From: an uncultured Planctomycetales bacterium
Lineage (GTDB): Bacteria > Omnitrophota > Gorgyraeia > Zapsychrales > JANLHA01
DNA: 64,000 nucleotides
Assembly: GCA_964489065.1 (NCBI GenBank)
Contig: CAZAXH010000001.1
Span: 85,106-149,105 of the forward strand
Reading direction: 5' to 3'
Positions 2,818 through 59,220 of the stretch are shown here, piece by piece (positions within the stretch are counted from its first letter, which is position 1; each line of letters begins with the position of its first letter). The position numbers and the translations under genes are program-made. The notes under the pieces are model-generated. The model saw only the letters and a program-made list of their open reading frames with translations, had not been told where the DNA came from and searched no databases.

Positions 2818-3801
2818 TTATCCGTTAAAAGATTTCCGTTTAAGCGCCCGGTACTCCGCGATCGTCCGCTCCACACCCTCAGCAAGCGAGATGCGAGGCG
2901 TGAAGCCCAGAGCTTTCATCCGGCTTACGTCCATACATTTCCGGGCCATACCGTCAGGTTTGCCCGCATCCCATGCCAACCGGCCCCGGAACCCGGCTTT
3001 ATCAGCGATCAATTCCGCCAGAGAACGGATCGTCACCTCCGCTCCGCTTCCCACATTAATAAATTCCGGGGAATCATAATACTCCAGCATGAACAGGATC
3101 GCGGCCGCCGCATCATCCACATGCAAGAACTCCCTCAAAGGGCGGCCTGTCCCCCAGAGGGGAACCTCGTCCCGGCCTTCATCCACCGCATCAACCGTCT
3201 TTTTCACCAAAGCGGAAAGGACATGCGACCGTTGCAGGTCAAAACAATCGTTCGTCCCGTAAAGATTACACGGCATCAGACTGATTCCGGGAAACCCGTA
3301 TTGCCGATTATAATATTCCACCATTTTCAACCCCGCGATCTTAGCCAGGGCATACCCTTCATTGGTCGGTTCCAGAGCTCCGGTCAATAAATATTCTTCT
3401 TTCATGGGCTGCGGGCACTCCCGGGGAAAAATGCAGGAGCTGCCCAGGAAACAAAATTTTTTGACGCCATGCACATACGCCTGATGGATGATATTGTTCT
3501 GGATCACCAAATTTTCATAAAGGAATTCCGCCTTGTGCTCATTATTCGCCTTAATGCCTCCCACCCGCGCCGCGGCGTCGACCACGATATCGGGCTTCTC
3601 CAGGCTGAAAAATTTTTTAACCGCTTCGGTATCCGTCAAATCCAGTTCGACCCGGGACCTTAATACAAAATTCGTAAACCCCCGGGCTTTCAACTGCCGC
3701 ACCACGGCAGAACCGACCATGCCATTATGCCCGGCTACAAAAATTTTATGGTCTAGCCGTATTTCAAACACCTTTTTCACAAAACACCTCGTTTCTAACA
3801 A
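2818..3801 (-). CDS. fcl: GDP-L-fucose synthase (GDP-4-keto-6-deoxy-D-mannose 3,5-epimerase/4-reductase)
   Basis: 327 aa. KIFVAGHNGMVGSAVVRQL N-terminus and typical Fcl length and SDR motifs. The ORF-track start is TTG at 3801, so the true start is uncertain. Confidence 0.8.
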   Translation of the reverse strand: MLETRCFVKKVFEIRLDHKIFVAGHNGMVGSAVVRQLKARGFTNFVLRSRVELDLTDTEAVKKFFSLEKPDIVVDAAARVGGIKANNEHKAEFLYENLVIQNNIIHQAYVHGVKKFCFLGSSCIFPRECPQPMKEEYLLTGALEPTNEGYALAKIAGLKMVEYYNRQYGFPGISLMPCNLYGTNDCFDLQRSHVLSALVKKTVDAVDEGRDEVPLWGTGRPLREFLHVDDAAAAILFMLEYYDSPEFINVGSGAEVTIRSLAELIADKAGFRGRLAWDAGKPDGMARKCMDVSRMKALGFTPRISLAEGVERTIAEYRALKRKSFNG

Positions 3802-3849
3802 TCAAAGGACCCATTCGCATTTCTAGTTTACACTCCCTTAGGTCGTGTA
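3800..3849 (+). repeat. Intergenic repeat family, copy A1 (truncated: AATCAAAGG leader fused directly to the 3' hairpin module)
   Basis: aatcaaaggacccATTCGCATTTCTAGTTTACACTCCCTTAGGTCGTGTA. The imperfect palindrome GTTTACAC-N11-GTGTAAAC is shared with copies at 3881-3960, 36861-37030 and 38901-39075. Confidence 0.8.
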
Positions 3850-3880
3850 TTAAAAACCCGCATCCTTCAGCTCGTTCGCA

Positions 3881-3960
3881 TGGCTCACTCGCCTCAGGAT
3901 CAATTCGCATTTCTAGTTTACACTCCCTTAGGTCGTGTAAACTAAATGCTCATTGAATAA
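3881..3960 (+). repeat. Intergenic repeat family, copy A2 (middle plus 3' modules); overlaps the 3' end of the 3942..4511 CDS
   Basis: tggctcactcgcctcaggatcaattcgcatttctagtttacactcccttaggtcgtgtaaactaaatgctcattgaataa. Near-identical to the 3' halves of copies B and C. Confidence 0.8.
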
Positions 3961-4511
3961 CTTTCCCGGGCCAGGGTTTCGACCAGATCGACTTTTTTAC
4001 CGGGGGTCCATCCCGGCGGATCCGTTTGCGGCGGGCAAATAAAAAGCACCCCGTCTTTCAGCCCGTCCTGCTCCTCGGGAAGAAACCGGAACCGGCACCC
4101 CAGGAATTCCTCTTCTTTAAAAACCGCCTCCACGAGCCAGGCCACCTCTTCATCCCCGCAGGCCCAAAAATTTCTTTCCCCTCCGCGGTAAAAGCCACGC
4201 ACGATATCCCGGATCGTCTGCTTAAAACGCTTGATAGACTGAATCGTTTGCAACGTGTAATCCCGGGATTGTTCCAGTCGCTCGGACACCCCTTTAGGCG
4301 TCAGCGTATATTCAACTTTTCTTTTAGTAACCTGGCGGATATGAATATACCCCTGCTCCATCAGGCGGCGCAGAAGCATATTGGTGGCACCCAGAGAAAT
4401 GTTTAAATGACGAGAAAAGTCACGCTGGCTGGCGGCGCTTTCCGATCCGATGATATTGATGAGTTCGGCTTCTTTTGTGTTCAGGGTATCTTTGATCACA
4501 GGGGCTCCCAT
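3942..4511 (-). CDS. Winged-helix (MarR-like) transcriptional regulator
   Basis: 189 aa. N-terminal region SQRDFSRHLNISLGATNMLLRRLMEQGYIHIRQV resembles a MarR/PadR-type wHTH. The last six codons lie inside repeat copy A2. Confidence 0.45.
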   Translation of the reverse strand: MGAPVIKDTLNTKEAELINIIGSESAASQRDFSRHLNISLGATNMLLRRLMEQGYIHIRQVTKRKVEYTLTPKGVSERLEQSRDYTLQTIQSIKRFKQTIRDIVRGFYRGGERNFWACGDEEVAWLVEAVFKEEEFLGCRFRFLPEEQDGLKDGVLFICPPQTDPPGWTPGKKVDLVETLARESYSMSI

Positions 4512-19937: not shown

Positions 19938-22900
19938 TCATCCGGCCGCATCATAACCCAAGACCGGGCTCAACCACTTTTCCAGATCAGGAACCGGCAT
20001 CCCTTTTCTTCGGGCAAGGTCTTGCACCTGATCAAGGGCTATTTTCCCCAACCAGAAATATTTTGCCGCCGGATGGGAAAAATAAAATCCGCAAACGGAG
20101 GACGCGGGGATCATGGCGAAATTCTCGGTGAGACGGATCCCGGTGGTTTGTTCCACGTTCAACAGGCCGAACAACAACGGTTTCTCGGTATGGTCCGGGC
20201 ACGCAGGATAACCGGGAGCCGGGCGGATGCCCTGATAACGACACTGGAACAGCTCCTCGTTCGTCAGGTTTTCATCGGGAGCATACCCCCAATACTTTGT
20301 CCTGACCAGTTCATGCATACGCTCGGCAAAGGCTTCCGCCAGACGGTCGGACAAGGCCTTCACCAGAATACCGCGGTAGGAATCATGGTCCTTTTCATAC
20401 TTTTCCGCGAGTTCGGCCGTGCCAAACCCCGTGCTCACCGCGAATCCGCCGAGATAATCGGGGCGGCCCGTTGACCGGGGAGCGATAAAATCCGCAAGCG
20501 CGTAATACGGGCGCCCGTCATACTTCACGGCCTGTTGCCGCAAAGAATGGAAAGCAGTTAAAACATCCTTACGGCTTTCGTCCTCGTAAACTTCGATATC
20601 ATCCCCGACGCTGTTTGCGGGAAAGAAGCCCACCACCGCCCGGGCCTTCAGCAACTTCTGTCGCACGATCTCATCCAGCAACTGCTGCGCGTCCGCATAA
20701 AGCTTACGGGCTTCTCCCCCCTGCTGGGGGTCATCCAAGATTTTGGGAAAATGCCCTTTTAATTCCCAGGCCATAAAAAAGGGCGACCAGTCAATCTTCT
20801 CCCGGATTTCAGAAAGGTCAAAATGGTCAAAAACGCGGGTGCCCAAAAATTCCGGCGGCGTAAGCAGCGCCTGGGACCAATCCGTCTTAAGCCCTTTGCC
20901 CCGGGCTTCCGCCAGAGTCAAAAATTTCGTCTCGCTCCGGCGCCTGTCGAACTCTTCCCGGGCCGCCTGCTGTTCCGCCTGAATCTGTCCCGTAACCACT
21001 GTTTTCTGTTCCCCATCCAAGAGCTGACGGCTCAACTGCGCGCACCGGGACGCGTCTTTAATATGAACCACAAGCCCTTTATAGCAGGGGGCGATTTTTA
21101 CGGCCGTGTGCTGCAAAGAGGTCGTCGCCCCGCCGATTAAAATCGGGATCGTTAACCCGGCCTTGTCCATGTCCCGGGCAACATAGACCATCTCCTCCAG
21201 CGACGGCGTGATCAGCCCGCTCAACCCCACCATGTCGGCTTTTTCCCGTATCGCCGCCTCGACGATTTTTTCGGAAGGGACCATAACTCCTAAATCCACA
21301 ACCTCAAAATGGTTGCAGGCCAGGACCACGCTCACGATGTTCTTCCCGATATCGTGCACGTCGCCCTTCACGGTCGCCAGCAGAATTTTCCCTGCCCCGC
21401 GAGAAGACTTCCCGCTCTTTTCTTTTTCAATAAATGGCCTCAAATACGCCACGGCTTTCTTCATCACCCGGGCGCTTTTAACGACCTGGGGCAAAAACAT
21501 TTTCCCGGCACCGAACAAATCCCCGACGGTATTCATTCCTTTCATAAGCGGGCCTTCAATGACATCCAGAGGCCGCGGCGTTCTCTGGCGCACCTCCTCG
21601 GCGTCTTCCTCAATGTGTTCCACAAACCCCTTCACCAAGGCATGCGCGAGCCGATCTTCGGCCGGAAGACGCCGCCATTCCTGGTCGGCCGGCGCGGCCC
21701 TCCGCCCCTGCGTTTTGATCTGTTCGGCAAACACGACAAGACGTTCCGTCGCGTCCGGCCTTTTGTTCAAAAGAACGTCCTCAACGTGCCTCAAGAGATC
21801 TTGGGGGATTTCATCGTAAACAGCGATCATCCCCGCGTTGACAATCCCCATGTCCATCCCAGCCTGAATCGCGTGATATAAAAATGCCGCGTGCATCGCC
21901 TCCCGGACCACATTATTCCCCCGGAAAGAAAACGAAACATTACTCACCCCCCCGGAGACCCGGCAATGCGGCAAAGTGTTTTTAATCACACGCGTCGCTT
22001 CGATAAAATCCACGGCATAATTATTATGTTCTTCAATACCCGTCGCCACGGCAAAAACATTGGGGTCAAAAATAATGTCCTGGGGCCGAAATCCGACCTC
22101 CTCGGTCAGTATACGGTAAGCCCTCGTGCAGACATCCACTTTCCGGGCCTTCGAATCCGCCTGCCCTCGTTCGTCAAAAGCCATCACAACCACAGCTGCG
22201 CCCAACTTCTTCAACTCCGCGGCCTGTCGCTTAAAAACCTCTTCTCCTTCCTTCAGGGAAATGGAATTGACAATGGCCTTGCCCTGCACGCATTTCAGAC
22301 CCGCTTCAATCACGGGCCAGCGGGACGAATCGATCATAACGGGAACCCGGGCGATATCCGGTTCACTGGCAATAAGATTCAGGAATTTCACCATGGCTTT
22401 CCGGGAATCCAGCATCGCGTCATCCATATTCACGTCAACAATCTGGGCACCGGCCTCCACCTGCTGGCGGGCTACTGACAGGGCCTCTTCATACTGCTCG
22501 TTTTTAATCAAATCCGCGAATTTTTTGGAACCCGCGACATTGGTCCGTTCCCCGATATTAATAAAATTAGAGTCAGGCCGGATAACCAAGGCCTCCAATC
22601 CGCTCAAGCAGGTCCTCGCCGGAATATCAGGAAGGGCGCGCGGTCTAAACCCGGACACGGCGCGGCGGATCTCCCGGATATATTCCGGCGTGGTCCCGCA
22701 GCAACCACCGACGATATTGACATGCCCTTCCCGAGCGAAATCTGCGATCAGCCGAGCCATTTCCGACGGACTCTGGTCAAACCCGCCAAATCCGTCCGGC
22801 AGGCCCGCGTTAGGGTAACAACTGATATAACATGGCGCCAAACGGGACAACTCCGCAATATACGGCCGCAGCTTGTCCGCCCCCAGAGAGCAATTGAGCC

Positions 22901-23636
22901 CCACGGACAACGGGCCGGCATGCATCACGGAAATCCAAAACGCCTCCAGGGTCTGCCCGGAAAACATCCGGCCACTCGCGTCGGCAATCGTGCCGGAAAT
23001 CATAACCGGAATCCGGCGGCCGGCCCTTTCAAAGGCCCCCTCAATCGCGTAAAGGGCCGCTTTACAATTTAACGTGTCAAAAATCGTTTCAATCAAAAGG
23101 AAGTCCACTCCGCCATCCATAAGCCCGCGGACCTGCTCGGCGTACGCCGCGACCAGTTGGTCAAACGTGACCGCCCGGGAGCCAGGGTCATTCACATCCG
23201 TGGACATGGAAGCGGTCCGGTTCGTCGGGCCGATCGCCCCGGCCACAAAACGGGGCTGACTGGGATTTTGCCGCGTCATAGCCTCAGCGGCCCTGCGGGC
23301 AATCCTGGCGGACGCGATGTTAAATTCATACGCCTTCCCCTGCAATTGATAATCGGCCAGGCTGATCGCGTTGGCGCCGAAAGTATTCGTCTCAATGATA
23401 TCCGCTCCGGCGTCAAGATACGCACGGTGGATTTCTTCAATAATCTGCGGCTGGGTCAGCGAAAGGACATCCCCATTCCGTTTTAAATCCACAGGATGAT
23501 CCGCAAATATATCACCCCGCACCGCCTTCTCATCCAAATTATATTCCTGCACCATGGTGCCCATGGCCCCGTCTAGAATAAGAATCCTTTCTGCGAGGAG
23601 CTTAATAATCGGATGGGATAAACCGGCTGGCCGCAT
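19938..23636 (-). CDS. metH: Cobalamin-dependent methionine synthase
   Basis: 1232 aa. Hcy-binding, pterin-binding, B12-binding ([10 protein letters not shown]) and AdoMet-activation modules in canonical order. Confidence 0.95.
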
Positions 23637-23912: not shown

Positions 23913-23956
23913 AGAAAAAATGAAAAGCCTACTCCTAGGCAAGAAATAGGCTTTTC
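23913..23956 (-). terminator. Rho-independent terminator-like hairpin (minus strand)
   Basis: On the minus strand: GAAAAGCCTA-loop-TAGGCTTTTC followed by ATTTTTTCT. Lies about 280 nt upstream of the metH start. Confidence 0.45.
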
Positions 23957-24211
23957 ATCATTTATTCGGCAGCCGGGCTTTCCTGTTAGGATCCTTGGCT
24001 TTGCGTCCCCGCCTTACAACGGGTTTGCTTTTTCGCTAAATGAACGTTTAGTAGACCGCTTTATGCGATCAACCCTTTCTTAGTTAAATATAATATATAA
24101 TGTTATTATTTGCAAACAAAATGCCATTAAATTAACTATTTAACAACAAACGGGTTACATACAAATTCGCCAAACGGCAAACCAAAAAGCAAAAAATCTC
24201 CCAAAACGACC

Positions 24212-36860: not shown

Positions 36861-37030
36861 AATCAAAGGCATGAACCCCGCAGAACAAGCTCTGGACTCC
36901 ATTAACCGCAGTAAGCCGCGAGGAATTCTCTTGATTAAACCAATATTCTTCGACTCACTCGCTCAGGATCAATTCGCATTTCTCATTTACACTCCCTTGG
37001 GTCGTGTAAACTCAATGCTCATGGAATAAA
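36861..37030 (+). repeat. Intergenic repeat family, copy B (full length: 5' module, middle module, 3' hairpin module)
   Basis: AAATCAAAGGcatgaaCCCCgcagaacaagctCTGGACTCcATTAACCGCagtaagccgcgagg...cgactcactcgct...aattcgcatttctcatttacactcccttgggtcgtgtaaactcaatgctcatggaataaa. Confidence 0.85.
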
Positions 37031-37143
37031 AAATTCCCCGGCCCGGGTAGTATTTTAATATATCCCCCGCGTTTTGCAAGAAAAGATACTGCCGAAATTC
37101 ATTTCCAAAAAGGCCGACAGACATAACGGCAGAAGGTTCCACG

Positions 37144-38493
37144 CTATGGGGTCGGGGTTGGAGTTGGGGTCGGCGTCCGGGTTGGCGTCGGCGTCGGAGT
37201 GTTGGTTGGAGTCGGCGTCACTGTCGGTGTTGGCGTCACCGTTGGTGTTGGCGTCACTGTCGGCGTCGGCGTGTTGGTTGGAGTCGGCGTCGGAGTCGGC
37301 GTATTAGTCGGCGTCGGCGTCGGGGTTGGAGTCGGCGTCGGAGTCCGGGTCGGGGTCGGCGTCGGAGTCGGGGTACAGCTAGGAACTGTACAGGGAATTG
37401 TCGAAGGCGGTTGGGTTGTAGAATTGCAATAGGAGTTCGCAACAGTTGAGCCGCCCATGTCCTCACACCAAACCGGCCGGACACACGTTCCTCCGTTGGG
37501 AACACTCGGAGTTCCGCAGGTGCCAGTACAGGGGCCGCACGCACCGAAATCCCACGAACACCACCCGCAATCGGCATAACAGGCGTCACAATCTTCGGTC
37601 GCGGGGTAATTACATGTCCCGTCTCCGCATAATGAACCGCAGTCCCAGGAGCAGTTAACACTCGTTTCACCCGCGCAGGAATCACAAACAAAATTACCGC
37701 ATACCGCCGTACAGTCCGACGTACAGGCCACAGTCCCTCCCCCGCCGCAATATGACTCCAAACTCGTCGTGCAAACCAAATCCCCGCAACAGGGCTGGCA
37801 CGCCACGCAGGATAAACAGGCCCCGGGAGCCGTACAATCAAAGGAGGGATGACCGCAAACAATCGGGCAGTCAGCCGCGCAACTCAAAGGATCCTCGTTG
37901 CAGATCCCGTCCCCGCAACATGGCGAACACGCCGCGCAAATGCCGCATTGCCCGGCACAATTAAAGCCCGGCTCCCCGCAAACCGGAGTTCCGCAATCCG
38001 TTGGGCAGGAAAGATACGTCTCCCCGCCGCTGCATGCCCCGTCCCCGCAGCACGGCTGACAGGCCGCGCAACCGGCACAATTTGCCGGCAGGTCACAATT
38101 AAACGTCGGATCCCCGCATTCCGGAGGGCAGTCGGCCGGACAGTTGGTCTTATCTTCCACATAAAGCGGGGGAATATTAACATTATCACAGCTCCCGTTT
38201 CCACAGCACGGCGAACAGGCCGGACAATTCGTGCATCCTTCAACATCAAAACTAAGTCTAACCTGCCAACAATATACCAAATCCGGGCAGGTCAAGGATA
38301 CAAAACAATTATCGGCGGTACATATTTCTGCAGTTTCGGCATTAATTTGATTAAGGGACTGCTTAAAACTTCCCATAACTGCGCCGCGGAAAGGGCCGAA
38401 AGGCCCGATAAAAGACAGGATAGCGACAACCACAACTGCGACAAGCAGTAAATATTCGATAATTTGTTGTGCCGTCTTATTGATGAGTCGCAT
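37144..38493 (-). CDS. Chimeric Flp/class-III-signal-peptide-like pilin: N-terminal pilin-type hydrophobic segment, five or six Cys-rich repeats (CxxCxPCCGDGxC ... CPxDC) and a C-terminal (Thr-Pro)n tail
   Basis: 449 aa. N-terminus [28 protein letters not shown]. Repeats [56 protein letters not shown]. Tail is about 80 residues of [16 protein letters not shown]... Confidence 0.55.
37150..37380. repeat. Hexanucleotide-periodic tandem repeat (GGCGTC/GGAGTC units) encoding the (TP)n tail
   Basis: 230 bp of near-perfect 6- and 12-bp periodicity (ggggtcggcgtcggagtc...). Confidence 0.8.
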
Positions 38494-38626: not shown

Positions 38627-38845
38627 TTAGGGGTTAAGAAGCGTCAACGTGCCGGCAGCATCACCCCAAACCATCCCAGCAACATCCACCATCCCCTGTA
38701 CCGGAGCATTAAGAGACCGTTCATACCCGGTTCGGAACTCACCGCCCGGGCTCATAAATACAAAAATGACAACCACAACGATTGTAAATAATAGTAAGAA
38801 TTCAATCGTGTGTTGCCCTGAGTGATTATGAATCATTTTTAACAT
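38627..38845 (-). CDS. Flp-family type IVb pilin (class III signal peptide)
   Basis: 72 aa. MLKMIHNHSGQHTIEFLLLFTIVVVVIFV matches the Flp prepilin G/xxxxEF(Y) processing motif followed by a hydrophobic helix. Confidence 0.6.
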   Translation of the reverse strand: MLKMIHNHSGQHTIEFLLLFTIVVVVIFVFMSPGGEFRTGYERSLNAPVQGMVDVAGMVWGDAAGTLTLLNP

Positions 38846-38900: not shown

Positions 38901-39075
38901 AAATCAAAGATATAAACCCCAGAGCGCAAGTCTGGACTCAATTAACCGCAGCAAGCTGCGGGGTATTAAACCACCATCCTTCGATTCGTTCTCGTGGCTC
39001 ACTCGCCAGAGGAACAATTCGCATTTCTAATTTACACTCCCTTGGGTCGTGCAAACTAAATGCTCATTGAATAAA
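38901..39075 (+). repeat. Intergenic repeat family, copy C (full length)
   Basis: AAATCAAAGAtataaaCCCCagagcgcaagtCTGGACTCAATTAACCGCagcaagctgcgggg...gtggctcactcgcc...aattcgcatttctaatttacactcccttgggtcgtgcaaactaaatgctcattgaataaa. Sits 55 nt upstream of the Flp pilin start. Confidence 0.85.
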
Positions 39076-39150
39076 ATCCAGAATTATAACACTTTTAATA
39101 CTAAATGGTTAGAAAATCTACCCAAAAACAAAACATAAAGTCAACCACGA

Positions 39151-39585
39151 TCAGTTATGCTCCCGGGCGCTTAAGATACGGCTTATCATCTCTTGCTCAT
39201 AAGCTTTCTCAATTTTTACAAGTTCCCCGCTCCCCAAGAAAGATCGGACGGCCTTTTTCACCGCCTCCAATCTTTTACGAAGATACCAATAATCCGCCTT
39301 GAGATCCCCCTTGCGGCCTTCTTCATACTTATCCGCATAAGCGCTCTTTTTCTTATGCTCCATATATTGCTGAAAGGCAACAATTTTAACATGAAATTTC
39401 TTGCCCTGGGTGGTATCTTTGAGCTCTGGAGCTTTGTGGAACTCTTTCAGCAAAAAGTCATCCACATCCAATTGGGTAAACTTACGGTCTATCCGTTCCA
39501 AATCTTCTTTGGTCGTCTTATAACACCAGATGAGATAACGTCGGTATAAATTTCTTTCTTCCGGAGTCATCTTTCTCTTTCGCAT
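39151..39585 (-). CDS. Hypothetical charged soluble protein
   Basis: 144 aa, Lys/Glu/Arg-rich. No motif recognised. Confidence 0.35.
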   Translation of the reverse strand: MRKRKMTPEERNLYRRYLIWCYKTTKEDLERIDRKFTQLDVDDFLLKEFHKAPELKDTTQGKKFHVKIVAFQQYMEHKKKSAYADKYEEGRKGDLKADYWYLRKRLEAVKKAVRSFLGSGELVKIEKAYEQEMISRILSAREHN

Positions 39586-56523: not shown

Positions 56524-56710
56524 ACGATTTATGACATGGCGCAAGGCCAACCGATAGCGGCACCGCCCCCATTTAATCACTAAACACTTCCACTGTCAAT
56601 GAGATTCACAAAGACATGGCTTAAAGAAACACCCGTTAGCATGAATTCTTTTCCCGAATCAAACGTATAGACCCCTTTCCTCCCAACACAACCGAGACGG
56701 CCTAAATCCA

Positions 56711-59143: not shown

Positions 59144-59220
59144 AAATCAAAAGTATGAACCCCAAGCAAGCCCTGGACTCAATTAACCGCAACAAGCCGC
59201 GGGGTATGAAACCAACGCCG
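59144..59220 (+). repeat. Intergenic repeat family, copy D (5' module only), 25-35 nt upstream of the apt start codon
   Basis: AAATCAAAAGtatgaaCCCCaagcaagcCCTGGACTCAATTAACCGCaacaagccgcgggg. Matches the 5' modules of copies B and C. Confidence 0.8.

Follow-up and report, generated by a model that had tools for sequence, protein, structure and literature searches.

A modular hairpin repeat in intergenic gaps of one Omnitrophota clade is probably a non-autonomous, BOX-like element

A small modular repeat occupies five gaps in the window, the whole 64,000-nucleotide stretch of DNA analysed here, whose GC content of 50.8% does not bear out its earlier description as GC-rich. Module-based re-mapping recovered the four copies of the earlier note at their positions and in one common orientation, the first spanning 3800-3960, and added a fifth site that had been overlooked, a 19-nt remnant consisting of the leader alone (Table 1). 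All window copies lie on the + strand, each within a gap between minus-strand genes. Judged by sequence, the likeness among copies is far above chance expectation: nhmmer E-values range from 4e-12 to 5e-25 for the window copies, some of which were among the seed alignments, and independent copies from metagenome-assembled genomes (MAGs) match the window by BLAST with E-values of 1e-16 to 1e-57.

The genes named beside the copies were confirmed by Pfam: an Epimerase-family, fcl-like gene at the 3800 site, a spermidine-synthase fusion at the 36861 site (a 607-aa protein with a spermine/spermidine synthase domain), a pilin, and a phosphoribosyltransferase at the 59145 site, the closest homologues of which are annotated as adenine phosphoribosyltransferase (apt). 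The 72-aa ORF at the pilin site (38627-38845, minus) has a weak class III (Flp-type) signal peptide, and the copy at that site lies upstream of its conserved extended -10 promoter. Directly before the 36861 copy runs the T-tract of a terminator-like hairpin trailing the upstream gene (37144-38493, minus), and 80 nt after the copy the 607-aa gene starts; at the first site the terminal module and the stop codon of a winged-helix gene lying upstream (ORF 3942-4511, minus) overlap. The element was also said to abut the fcl start codon, which holds only if the TTG at 3801 is the start; a GTG at about 3780, some 20 nt off, is likelier, and is favoured by the orthologous ORF in relative L010 and by a GAGGTG ribosome-binding site.

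Table 1. Copies and modules of the repeat in the window
Position	Strand	Feature	Evidence
3800..3849	+	Leader AATCAAAGG (3800-3808) fused to a truncated unit with only the 3' core ATTCGCATTTCTAGTTTACAC-TCCCTTAGGTC-GTGTA	Sequence; nhmmer unit match 3804-3849, E 4e-12
3850..3939	+	One complete unit of ~90 nt: junction TTAAAAACC, middle hairpin ATCCTTCAG...CTCAGGAT around GGCTCACTCGC, then 3' core	nhmmer E 4.8e-25
3940..3961	+	Terminal module T (AACTAAATGCTCATTGAATAA), closing the long imperfect hairpin	Sequence
36861..37031	+	A-U-T copy, middle hairpin degenerate, terminal stem partly disrupted	nhmmer; empty orthologous site in L067
38902..39076	+	Best-preserved A-U-T copy: A 38902-38972, unit 38973-39053, T 39054-39076	nhmmer; empty orthologous sites in L068 and L069
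56657..56675	+	Leader-only remnant AATCAAACGTATAGACCCC, between a TPR gene and tRNA-Arg	Relatives L062 and L019, with a full A-U-T element at the same place
59145..59213	+	A-only copy (leader and two hairpins), between a LacI-like gene and the adenine phosphoribosyltransferase (apt) gene	nhmmer; relatives

The repeat is modular, as had been described, but the module that truly repeats is a unit of ~90 nt made up of the middle hairpin and the 3' core. The architecture is A-(U)n-T, in which A is the leader with two short hairpins, U is this unit in 0 to 5 or more tandem copies, and T closes an imperfect hairpin of ~20 bp; internal units carry just one half of this long palindrome. Observed forms include A, AUT, AUUT up to AUUUUUT, UT and UUUUUT, and the order at 3800-3960 is leader, truncated unit, full unit and terminal module. 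Within one element all modules run head-to-tail in a single orientation, with a junction motif, GTAT(T)AAAC, recurring after every module and a unit period of 89-92 nt, a variation that rules out peptide coding through the arrays. Between copies and between genomes, the 3' core, TTTACAC-TCCCTT.GGTC-GTG, hardly varies; 35 of 35 terminal units have the same core and loop flanks (TCCC...GGTC) amid variable surrounding sequence.

Scans of public genomes and metagenomes, a check of the kind proposed in the earlier note, found the family to be dispersed across related genomes. Public genomes yielded 12 loci, all from one Candidatus Omnitrophota MAG, and metagenomes yielded 48 further loci, mostly from one activated-sludge assembly; together these represent ~47 distinct sites once orthologous loci are merged. 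Every assignable site belongs to a single Candidatus Omnitrophota clade, sampled from sludge and digesters, and no similarity to the element was found in the viral contigs, plasmids and phages searched. The genes flanking the elements, in the window and in the sampled loci of relatives, are functionally unrelated and of a housekeeping kind, as are those beside atypically oriented copies.

The state of orthologous sites varies among relatives: some are full, others truncated, expanded or empty. At the apt site the element is absent from L065 and L066, has the form A-U3-T in L062 and L063 and A-U2-T in L064, and is present as A only in the window. (The relatives with an empty apt site are more distant than the carriers of A-U3-T and A-U2-T.) The 36861 site is empty in L067, where the junction reads ...TTTTTTTATTT|ATAAGAGG and the neighbouring 607-aa protein is 90% identical, and the 38901 site is empty in both L068 and L069. 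By sequence comparison, these three independent empty sites show that a discrete block, CAATGAG...TTTGATT on the gene-coding strand, was inserted beside a pre-existing TTATT. At least one empty relative per site already has this motif at the insertion point (L065 at the apt site, L067, and L068/L069), and the more distant L066 has only the approximate form TAATT at the apt site. Across the family, 31-38 of 39 distinct flanks have TTTATT before the element, and the sequence is random beyond -7 and past the other end. Insertion spots are AT-rich intergenic spacers, such as terminator T-tracts and regions just upstream of promoters.

These observations bear on the earlier suggestion that the element inserts next to start codons. 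On the coding strand, a start codon does follow 20-80 nt after the end of window copies, and in many relatives the A end lies 10-40 nt from a ribosome-binding site. At most sites, equally, only about 0-70 nt separate the T end from the upstream stop codon, and insertion at TTATT in short AT-rich spacers explains the placement better.

Hairpins lie near both ends of the inserted block, the terminal one ~20 bp long (GCATTT...AAATGC) and those of the A module 6 bp (CCGCAG/CTGCGG), and the two are unrelated to each other. The ends AATCAAAGG and TCATTGAAT match as inverted repeats at only 5-7 of 8-10 positions, and comparison of empty with filled sites, ambiguous by rotation, gave no convincing target duplication. 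An ATT duplication was considered and rejected, as the end variants of L010, L008, L019 and L060 disagree (4/5) and only those of L001 agree. A classical MITE was rejected for want of terminal inverted repeats plus a target-site duplication, and an integron attC site was rejected because empty sites miss only the element and keep the adjacent genes, in housekeeping surroundings where no integrase was seen.

Elements also change after insertion. Unit number differs at orthologous sites (U3, U2 and 0 at the apt site; U4 versus U3 between L006 and L047), and the breakpoints of these changes and of module deletions fall at GTAT(T)AAAC. In the lineage of the window the A hairpins and a middle hairpin have been lost at the fcl site, the leader being kept, where the orthologous elements of L010 and L014 are A-U-U-T; additionally, U3-T is missing at the apt site and all but the leader is gone at the TPR site. 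Among near-identical genomes we found no very recent insertion polymorphism, and the differences between the closest genomes are deletions and changes in unit number.

The statement that the element always has the same orientation and always lies 5' of a gene is true of the window, where nearly all genes are on the minus strand, but not of the family. Between co-directional genes, 23 elements are antisense and 4 are sense, and further sites lie between divergent or convergent genes or before a tRNA. When the flanks are read in element orientation, 32 sites have a negative GC skew, 5 a positive one and 10 a value near zero, so that the strand bearing TTATT is the G-rich strand at 32 sites versus 5; skew is also negative at 8 of the 8 sites with one discordant neighbour gene. 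Replication bias and transcription bias are not cleanly separable here, because genes and GC skew are co-oriented.

Covariation, a check raised by the earlier note, gave a divided answer: there are compensatory changes in the middle and terminal hairpins, but no significant covariation in the A hairpins. Pairing in the middle stem and terminal hairpin reaches 94.7%, six pairs are changed on both sides, and 0 of 500 shuffles reached as high a value. On the coding strand, both A hairpins read G-CUUG-C, conserved internal loops read tandem GA/GA, and the main loop holds an invariant, Shine-Dalgarno-like GGGAG; a kink-turn reading of the GA/GA loops is ruled out, as there is no adjoining 3-nt bulge. 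The minus strand of the best copy folds better than shuffled sequence (z = -2.8). Stems show 24 G-T wobbles versus 12 A-C mismatches, 15 of the 24 coming from one column, and this count gives no usable strand asymmetry, with no excess of G-U over A-C on either strand. A sigma-70 scan of the coding strand found no promoter inside any window copy, and Rfam, searched across the entire window at gathering thresholds and across 36.7-39.2 kb with E as high as 10, returned nothing on the element. The Rfam matches in the window are a c-di-GMP-I riboswitch, tRNA and noise.

We considered whether the repeat could be a structured cis-regulatory leader RNA, with hairpins in the 5' UTR that control transcription or translation of the downstream gene. 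Its place before start codons on the coding strand of the window, its nearness to ribosome-binding sites in many relatives, the compensatory changes in the terminal hairpin, the conserved hairpin and loop motifs and the favourable minus-strand fold of the best copy all speak for such an RNA. We nevertheless judge it very unlikely. The downstream genes share no common function; four sites between co-directional genes have the opposite orientation, and others lie between divergent or convergent genes or before a tRNA; and the element is truncated, expanded or absent at the same genes in relatives. The extended -10 stands between the element and the pilin gene, and the 36861 element comes after a terminator-like hairpin. 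The lack of G-U excess, the absence of an Rfam match, the variable period and the change of unit number between near-identical sites point the same way. Both the leader RNA and the promoter cassette of the earlier note are thus disfavoured by unrelated genes, opposite orientations, loss in relatives, the promoter at the pilin gene and the Rfam result, and membership of the leader RNAs or riboswitches was rejected on fixed orientation, orthologous conservation and a coherent gene set, none of which is found. A related proposal is exapted transcription punctuation, in which the A module would be an intrinsic terminator or attenuator and the stable T hairpin would protect mRNA 3' ends between genes, a role suggested before for some REP/BIME and pneumococcal SPRITE repeats; PMC3049150 summarises earlier cases of BIME attenuation and of mRNA stabilisation by repeats. 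Read on the coding strand, the A module has two GC hairpins and then a U-rich tail, and a scan flagged the first A hairpin with GTTTATATCT as terminator-like (minus strand, 38936-38918). The T end is close to the upstream stop codon at most sites, and the orientation bias would suit selection on a transcribed structure. Against this, an A module 10-40 nt before the next ribosome-binding site leaves no space for a promoter after the terminator, relatives tolerate A-less and T-less derivatives at the same sites, and the T hairpin has no U tail. With covariation in the A hairpins not significant and a separate terminator-like hairpin already preceding the 36861 element, we think this role unlikely as an explanation of the repeat.

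The near-invariant 3' core could instead reflect a host function, for example a protein-binding site. In its full form, this reading makes the repeat a binding-site array for a host DNA-binding or nucleoid-associated protein, with TTTACAC-N11-GTGTAAA as operator and copy number tuning local occupancy. The invariant core and flanks of terminal units, the regular spacing of units at ~90 nt and wobble pairs without strand asymmetry would fit such an array. It is highly improbable all the same: compensatory changes in the outer stem favour intrastrand pairing over duplex recognition, internal units contain just half of the long palindrome, the sampled loci offer no candidate regulator linked to the elements, and sites are freely lost between relatives. 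Almost no probability attaches to a local segmental duplication or a CRISPR-like array with spacers, which might be suggested by the 36861 and 38901 copies lying just 2 kb apart and flanking a two-gene block, and by arrays in which ~44 strongly conserved nucleotides alternate with ~46 more variable ones. The ~47 unlinked sites in several genomes, the repetition of the element alone and not of its flanking genes, and empty sites that show insertion of the element alone exclude segmental duplication, the outcome that the earlier note had set against its own readings. A CRISPR array was likewise rejected, because what separates the cores is again a conserved hairpin module, which does not vary within an array and recurs both within and between arrays.

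We conclude that the copies are probably members of a lineage-restricted family of small, non-coding, non-autonomous interspersed repeats of A-(U)n-T structure, functionally analogous to the pneumococcal BOX element. Most likely, the repeat is selfish and has been inserted into AT-rich intergenic gaps of one Omnitrophota group, and is not a regulatory leader RNA. Dispersal, empty sites lacking a discrete block, and module differences at orthologous sites support the REP/BIME/MITE-like mobile element that the earlier note had offered as its other reading. Mobilisation may depend on a single-strand-DNA enzyme encoded elsewhere in the genome, of HUH/Y1 type and IS200/IS605- or REP-like, which would account for the hairpins, the fixed 5' pentanucleotide and the strand bias. 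Unit number would change by slippage or unequal recombination at GTAT(T)AAAC. If adjacent genes are affected, for instance through stabilising hairpins or an attenuating, terminator-like A module, this may be incidental and not the element's reason to exist.

Across ~0.5 Mb of sampled loci there is no transposase or other recurrent ORF of that kind beside the elements, which weighs against the mobilisation proposed, and neither an autonomous parent element nor a full-length relative was found in these loci. Only response regulators and family-2 glycosyltransferases recur as neighbours, and these were rejected as transposase candidates. A bolder version of the mobile repeat, which we hold to be quite unlikely, makes it the non-autonomous partner of an undescribed Omnitrophota HUH-type single-strand-DNA system, with recognition of two unlike ends, insertion 3' of TTATT on the lagging-strand template and an internally amplifying 90-nt unit. 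Since the invariant coding-strand loop of this unit shows GGGAG between tandem G-A pairs, arrays before ribosome-binding sites would double as copy-number-variable modulators of translation or ribosome standby. If true, this would be a mobile repeat with an acquired, tunable effect on expression.

Good descriptions of small interspersed repeats exist for cultured Proteobacteria and Firmicutes. Omnitrophota are an uncultivated phylum of very small cells, and our literature search, as far as it reached, found no small interspersed repeat described for them. The family is therefore a new one of a known kind, the BOX/REP-like interspersed repeats. By itself it opens no long-standing question, and the more interesting leader-RNA reading is unsupported. 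Its filled, truncated, expanded and empty orthologous sites provide a usable case for studying how hairpin repeats without inverted ends spread. Additionally, many metagenome contigs terminate inside arrays, and knowing the family should aid binning and scaffolding of genomes from this clade. Arrays can be mistaken for CRISPRs or short ORFs (16 spurious ORFs in one cluster came from arrays alone), and variable unit number offers a ready strain-typing marker.

Comparison with known systems places the repeat among several families without equating it with any. Correia elements of Neisseria and enterobacterial ERIC sequences are likewise about 100-170 nt long, intergenic and often co-transcribed. 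Both have clear terminal inverted repeats, with a TA target duplication in the case of Correia, and tandem internal modules are not known from either. Reports of their effects on adjacent mRNAs, which depend on orientation, are summarised in PMC3049150. IS200/IS605 elements go in 3' of a particular tetra- or pentanucleotide, with the lagging-strand template as their target, and like the repeat described here they lack terminal inverted repeats and clear target duplication and have hairpins near their ends (PMC5027513). Here, too, one end always adjoins a short target, the T-rich TTATT, and the orientation bias would be compatible with an active strand on the lagging-strand template, although gene direction and skew are co-oriented. 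The ends of IS200/IS605 elements normally bear similar hairpins, whereas the left-end and right-end hairpins of the Omnitrophota element are dissimilar; no tnpA, tnpB or full-length relative was found in the sampled loci, and a tandemly amplifying internal unit is foreign to that family.

REP and BIME sequences are also numerous intergenic imperfect palindromes, arranged in mosaic clusters and often just past stop codons (PMC3333891, PMC3116915, PMC8266576). They also resemble the subterminal hairpins of IS200/IS605 and are thought to be non-autonomous, moved by a Y1/HUH enzyme encoded elsewhere (RAYT/TnpA-REP). REPs are 20-40 nt long and typically form inverted pairs in BIMEs or REPINs, whereas the modules here are longer, of three kinds and head-to-tail; there is no GTAG-type tetranucleotide at the hairpin foot, and no RAYT (Y1/HUH) gene was seen within the ~0.5 Mb of sampled loci.

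BOX of Streptococcus pneumoniae differs in that its terminal inverted repeats resemble those of ISSpn2, the proposed basis of its mobilisation (PMC3049150); the Omnitrophota element has no convincing terminal inverted repeat and no parent IS in the sampled loci. Its internal unit of ~90 nt, the 5' hairpin arm common to unit and terminal module, and its host, an uncultivated Omnitrophota clade, also set it apart, and sequence homology across phyla is not expected. The likeness is one of kind, not of homology. BOX is built as boxA-boxBn-boxC, with a boxB copy number that varies between strains (Croucher et al. 2011, PMC3049150), and both are composites of distinct 5' and 3' end modules around variable tandem internal modules. 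Both are intergenic, are predicted to form stem-loops if transcribed, and have no coding capacity. In both, the number of internal modules varies between strains and truncated forms are common.

We provide evidence that the modular repeat in this region, a real and well-defined new family of a known kind, is most likely a non-autonomous interspersed element. The four window copies described in the earlier note are all present, all on the + strand, and follow the architecture A-(U)n-T. Module A comprises a leader (AATCAAAGGTATAAACCCC) and two hairpins with 6-bp stems (CCAGAG-CAAG-CTCTGG and CCGCAG-CAAG-CTGCGG). The unit U spans ~90 nt (period 89-92 nt) and contains a middle hairpin, whose arms ATCCTTCGG...CTGAAGGAT surround CTCGTTCG...GGCTCACTCG, and a core, AATTCGCATTTCTAGTTTACAC-TCCCTTGGGTC-GTGTA. 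T (AACTAAATGCTCATTGAATAAA), present after the last unit only, folds back into an imperfect hairpin of ~20 bp in the order TCAAT/ATTGA, TC/TC internal loop, GCATTT/AAATGC, CT bulge and AGTTTACAC/GTGTAAACT, of which internal units retain just the innermost 5 bp. The junction motif GTAT(T)AAAC recurs behind the leader, the A hairpins and every unit, and the breakpoints of deletion derivatives fall at it; forms seen include A alone, AUT, AUUT up to AUUUUUT, UT and UUUUUT.

Among the facts fitting a non-autonomous repeat are hairpins with compensatory changes. With 35 distinct terminal units aligned, pairing in the middle stem and terminal hairpin reached 94.7% and six stem pairs had changed on both sides, a level reached by 0 of 500 shuffles; examples are G-C to A-T (columns 89/116, six sequences) and U-A to G-C (columns 37/68, five sequences). 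The A hairpins were 87% paired, and their covariation was not significant. Wobble and A-C pair counts in the stems gave no usable strand asymmetry, and thus the structure could operate in single-stranded DNA or in a transcript of either strand. Two TC/TC internal loops are conserved in the long hairpin (alignment A2 columns 78-79/124-125 and 97-98/107-108) and would appear on the coding strand as tandem G-A/G-A pairs; the invariant segment of the loop would there be GGGAG, which is Shine-Dalgarno-like.

Three loci from other genomes or metagenomes carry unusual modules. In L022, conversion of the 5' arm of the terminal hairpin has made it perfectly complementary to the 3' arm over 22 bp (TCAATGAGCATTTAGTTTACAC...GTGTAAACTAAATGCTCATTGA), and without the bulge and TC/TC loop its T module matches both strands. 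An unrelated 7-bp hairpin (GTCCCGC-TTAA-GCGGGAC) replaces the second A hairpin at the same position in L060, the sequence being swapped and the structure kept. In L011, an unrelated stretch of ~127 nt that contains hairpins itself (such as CCACGGCTAAAAGCCGTGG) separates the A module from the unit, and may be a second repeat family that landed inside the first.

Positions of the elements and other features discussed (window coordinates unless a locus is named)
Feature	Position	Strand	Remark
Copy at fcl site	3800-3960	+	
B12-dependent methionine synthase gene	19938-23636	-	full length
Terminator-like inverted repeat	23915-23963		hairpin, after the riboswitch
c-di-GMP-I riboswitch	23965-24039	-	60.9 bits
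Copy at 36861 site	from 36861	+	
Direct-repeat family D1	37138-37422		top direct-repeat family
Gene for 449-aa protein	37144-38493	-	
Second gene between copies	38627-38845	-	
Copy at 38901 site	38902-39076	+	
Gene for 144-aa protein	39151-39585	-	upstream of the 38901 copy
Remnant at TPR/tRNA-Arg site	56657-56675		19 nt of leader
Copy at apt site	59145-59213	+	
Converted terminal hairpin	L022 7-121		
A module with replaced hairpin	L060 1562-1655	-	
Insert between A and unit	L011 2634-2759		

The family is dispersed and, within the regions sampled, restricted to one narrow clade. An exact search for the 3' core, with each prokaryotic species represented by one genome, found 12 loci, all in JAGOJP01, a Candidatus Omnitrophota MAG from a sludge digester. 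Metagenomes added 48 loci, most from the activated-sludge assembly UPTA01 and a few from JGI samples; viral contigs, plasmids and phages held none. The window is distinct from the JAGOJP01 and UPTA01 assemblies and syntenic with both at 90-96% identity. Using nhmmer profiles of the modules, we catalogued 75 instances, or ~47 distinct sites once orthologous ones were merged. On 20-kb loci of four more distant genomes these profiles had no match below E = 0.7, the two sole matches being weak A-profile hits of about 5 bits in L068, which argues that the family is confined to this clade in the regions sampled. Many loci start or end inside an array (L016, L020, L025, L028, L032, L036, L048-L050, L052, L054, L055 and L057), at a demonstrable contig end in L016, L020, L025 and L036; thus, these metagenome assemblies appear to break often at the repeat.

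Orthologous sites occur full, reduced and empty. The fcl site is A-U-U-T in both relatives (L010 and L014); the A hairpins and one of the middle hairpins have been lost from the window copy. The apt site reads A-U3-T in the MAG and GCA_035432205 and A-U2-T in GCA_035431705. Module A stands alone there in the window and in a Logan contig whose adenine phosphoribosyltransferase (Apt) protein is identical. Gene order is shared by two more distantly related Omnitrophota, both on ~3.35-Mb contigs, in which the site lacks an element (Apt 86% and 79% identical; spacers of 34 nt and 57 nt). Relatives have A-U-T at the TPR/tRNA-Arg site, where the window keeps a leader remnant only. The 36861 site is empty in L067, whose neighbouring 607-aa protein is 90% identical: on the coding strand, ...TTTTTTTATTT|ATAAGAGG corresponds to ...TTTTTTATT, the inserted block (CCATGAGC...CCTTTGATT) and TATAACAGG in the window, with the insertion directly behind the T-tract of a terminator-like hairpin. 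Two relatives (607-aa protein 71% and 63% identical) are empty at the 38901 site, reading AATTTTATT|TTGTCTCC, and the filled site reads GATTTTATT, the inserted block (CAATGAGC...TCTTTGATT) and TCTGAATTC.

The insertion target is short. In 31-38 of 39 distinct flanks, TTTATT stands ahead of CAATGAG (coding strand), and sequence is random both beyond position -7 and behind ...TTTGATT. TTATT was already present at the insertion point in all three empty sites (L065, L067 and L068/L069); L066, which is more distant, has the motif in approximate form only. Compared as inverted repeats, the two ends were not convincing. A duplication of ATT is possible through junction rotation; end variants are concordant in one element (L001, ACT and ACT) and discordant in four others, and we therefore claim no target duplication.

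The earlier note had offered two readings, a leader RNA or promoter cassette and a small non-autonomous mobile element. Every window copy separates two co-directional genes of the minus strand, with one end near the downstream gene start and the other near the upstream gene stop. Across sites with co-directional neighbours, as placed by a greedy longest-ORF gene call, 23 elements are antisense to both genes versus 4 sense (exact two-sided binomial, ~3e-4); the neighbours diverge at another 5-6 sites and converge at 2. In element orientation, the ±4-kb flanks have negative GC skew at 32 sites, positive skew at 5 and skew near zero at 10; wherever one neighbouring gene is discordant (8 sites), the skew is negative. 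Inside the window, + strand skew is negative throughout 1-64000 (mean about -0.13) and the minus strand holds nearly all long ORFs, so gene-relative and replication-relative orientation are inseparable there; the whole window appears to lie on a single replichore with very strong gene-strand bias. Its GC content is 50.8%, at odds with its description as GC-rich.

On the coding strand, a terminator scan finds the A module terminator-like, and the RNA is more stably folded than its shuffles in the best copy (z = -2.8), though not in the degenerate 36861 copy (z = -1.1). Effects on neighbouring genes would be plausible. An Rfam search of the window at gathering thresholds, relaxed to E up to 10 over 36.7-39.2 kb, gave no match on the element. 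The neighbours are functionally unrelated to one another and include genes for the following proteins: Epimerase-family (fcl-like), adenine phosphoribosyltransferase, pilin-like, FtsW/RodA-family, GTP cyclohydrolase I, short-chain dehydrogenase, thiamine-pyrophosphate enzyme, ABC transporter, response regulator and glycosyltransferase. At the 38901 site an extended -10, conserved in all three sequences (TGATATACT, TGATATAAT and TGTTATAAT), separates the element from the pilin-like gene, placing the element upstream of the promoter and outside the 5' UTR. These unrelated neighbours and promoter position, the orientation exceptions, the discrete insertion and the modular gain and loss at fixed sites leave the leader RNA unsupported. 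The last two, with the dispersed, lineage-restricted distribution, support the mobile repeat.

Rfam matches elsewhere in the window were confined to a tRNA and a c-di-GMP-I riboswitch. The latter lies ~330 nt upstream of a B12-dependent methionine synthase gene, an unusual gene for this class, with no convincing ORF in the interval. In both genes between the 36861 and 38901 copies, the first segment resembles a class III (Flp-type) signal peptide. The 449-aa product, without a match in Pfam, combines repeated Cys-rich modules with a long tail of Thr-Pro repeats, the part encoded by D1. The 144-aa gene, which has no significant Pfam match, is conserved beside a DUF2298 membrane protein gene in relatives (neighbouring 607-aa protein 63-71% identical).

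The value of the new family is descriptive and moderate, and the surprise low; a leader RNA would have been more interesting. In its ends the element resembles IS200/IS605-/REP-type single-strand elements, with no inverted ends, hairpins, one end always at a fixed pentanucleotide, and an orientation by which the active strand would lie on the lagging-strand template (PMC5027513). These end features suggest that it may be mobilized by a single-strand IS200/IS605- or REP-type route. Against this likeness, its two end hairpins are unlike each other, and ~0.5 Mb of loci held no enzyme and no transposase-like or other recurrent ORF beside elements. In build, the repeat resembles pneumococcal BOX, which also combines end modules with a variable tandem internal module, the copy number of which changes between strains (PMC3049150).
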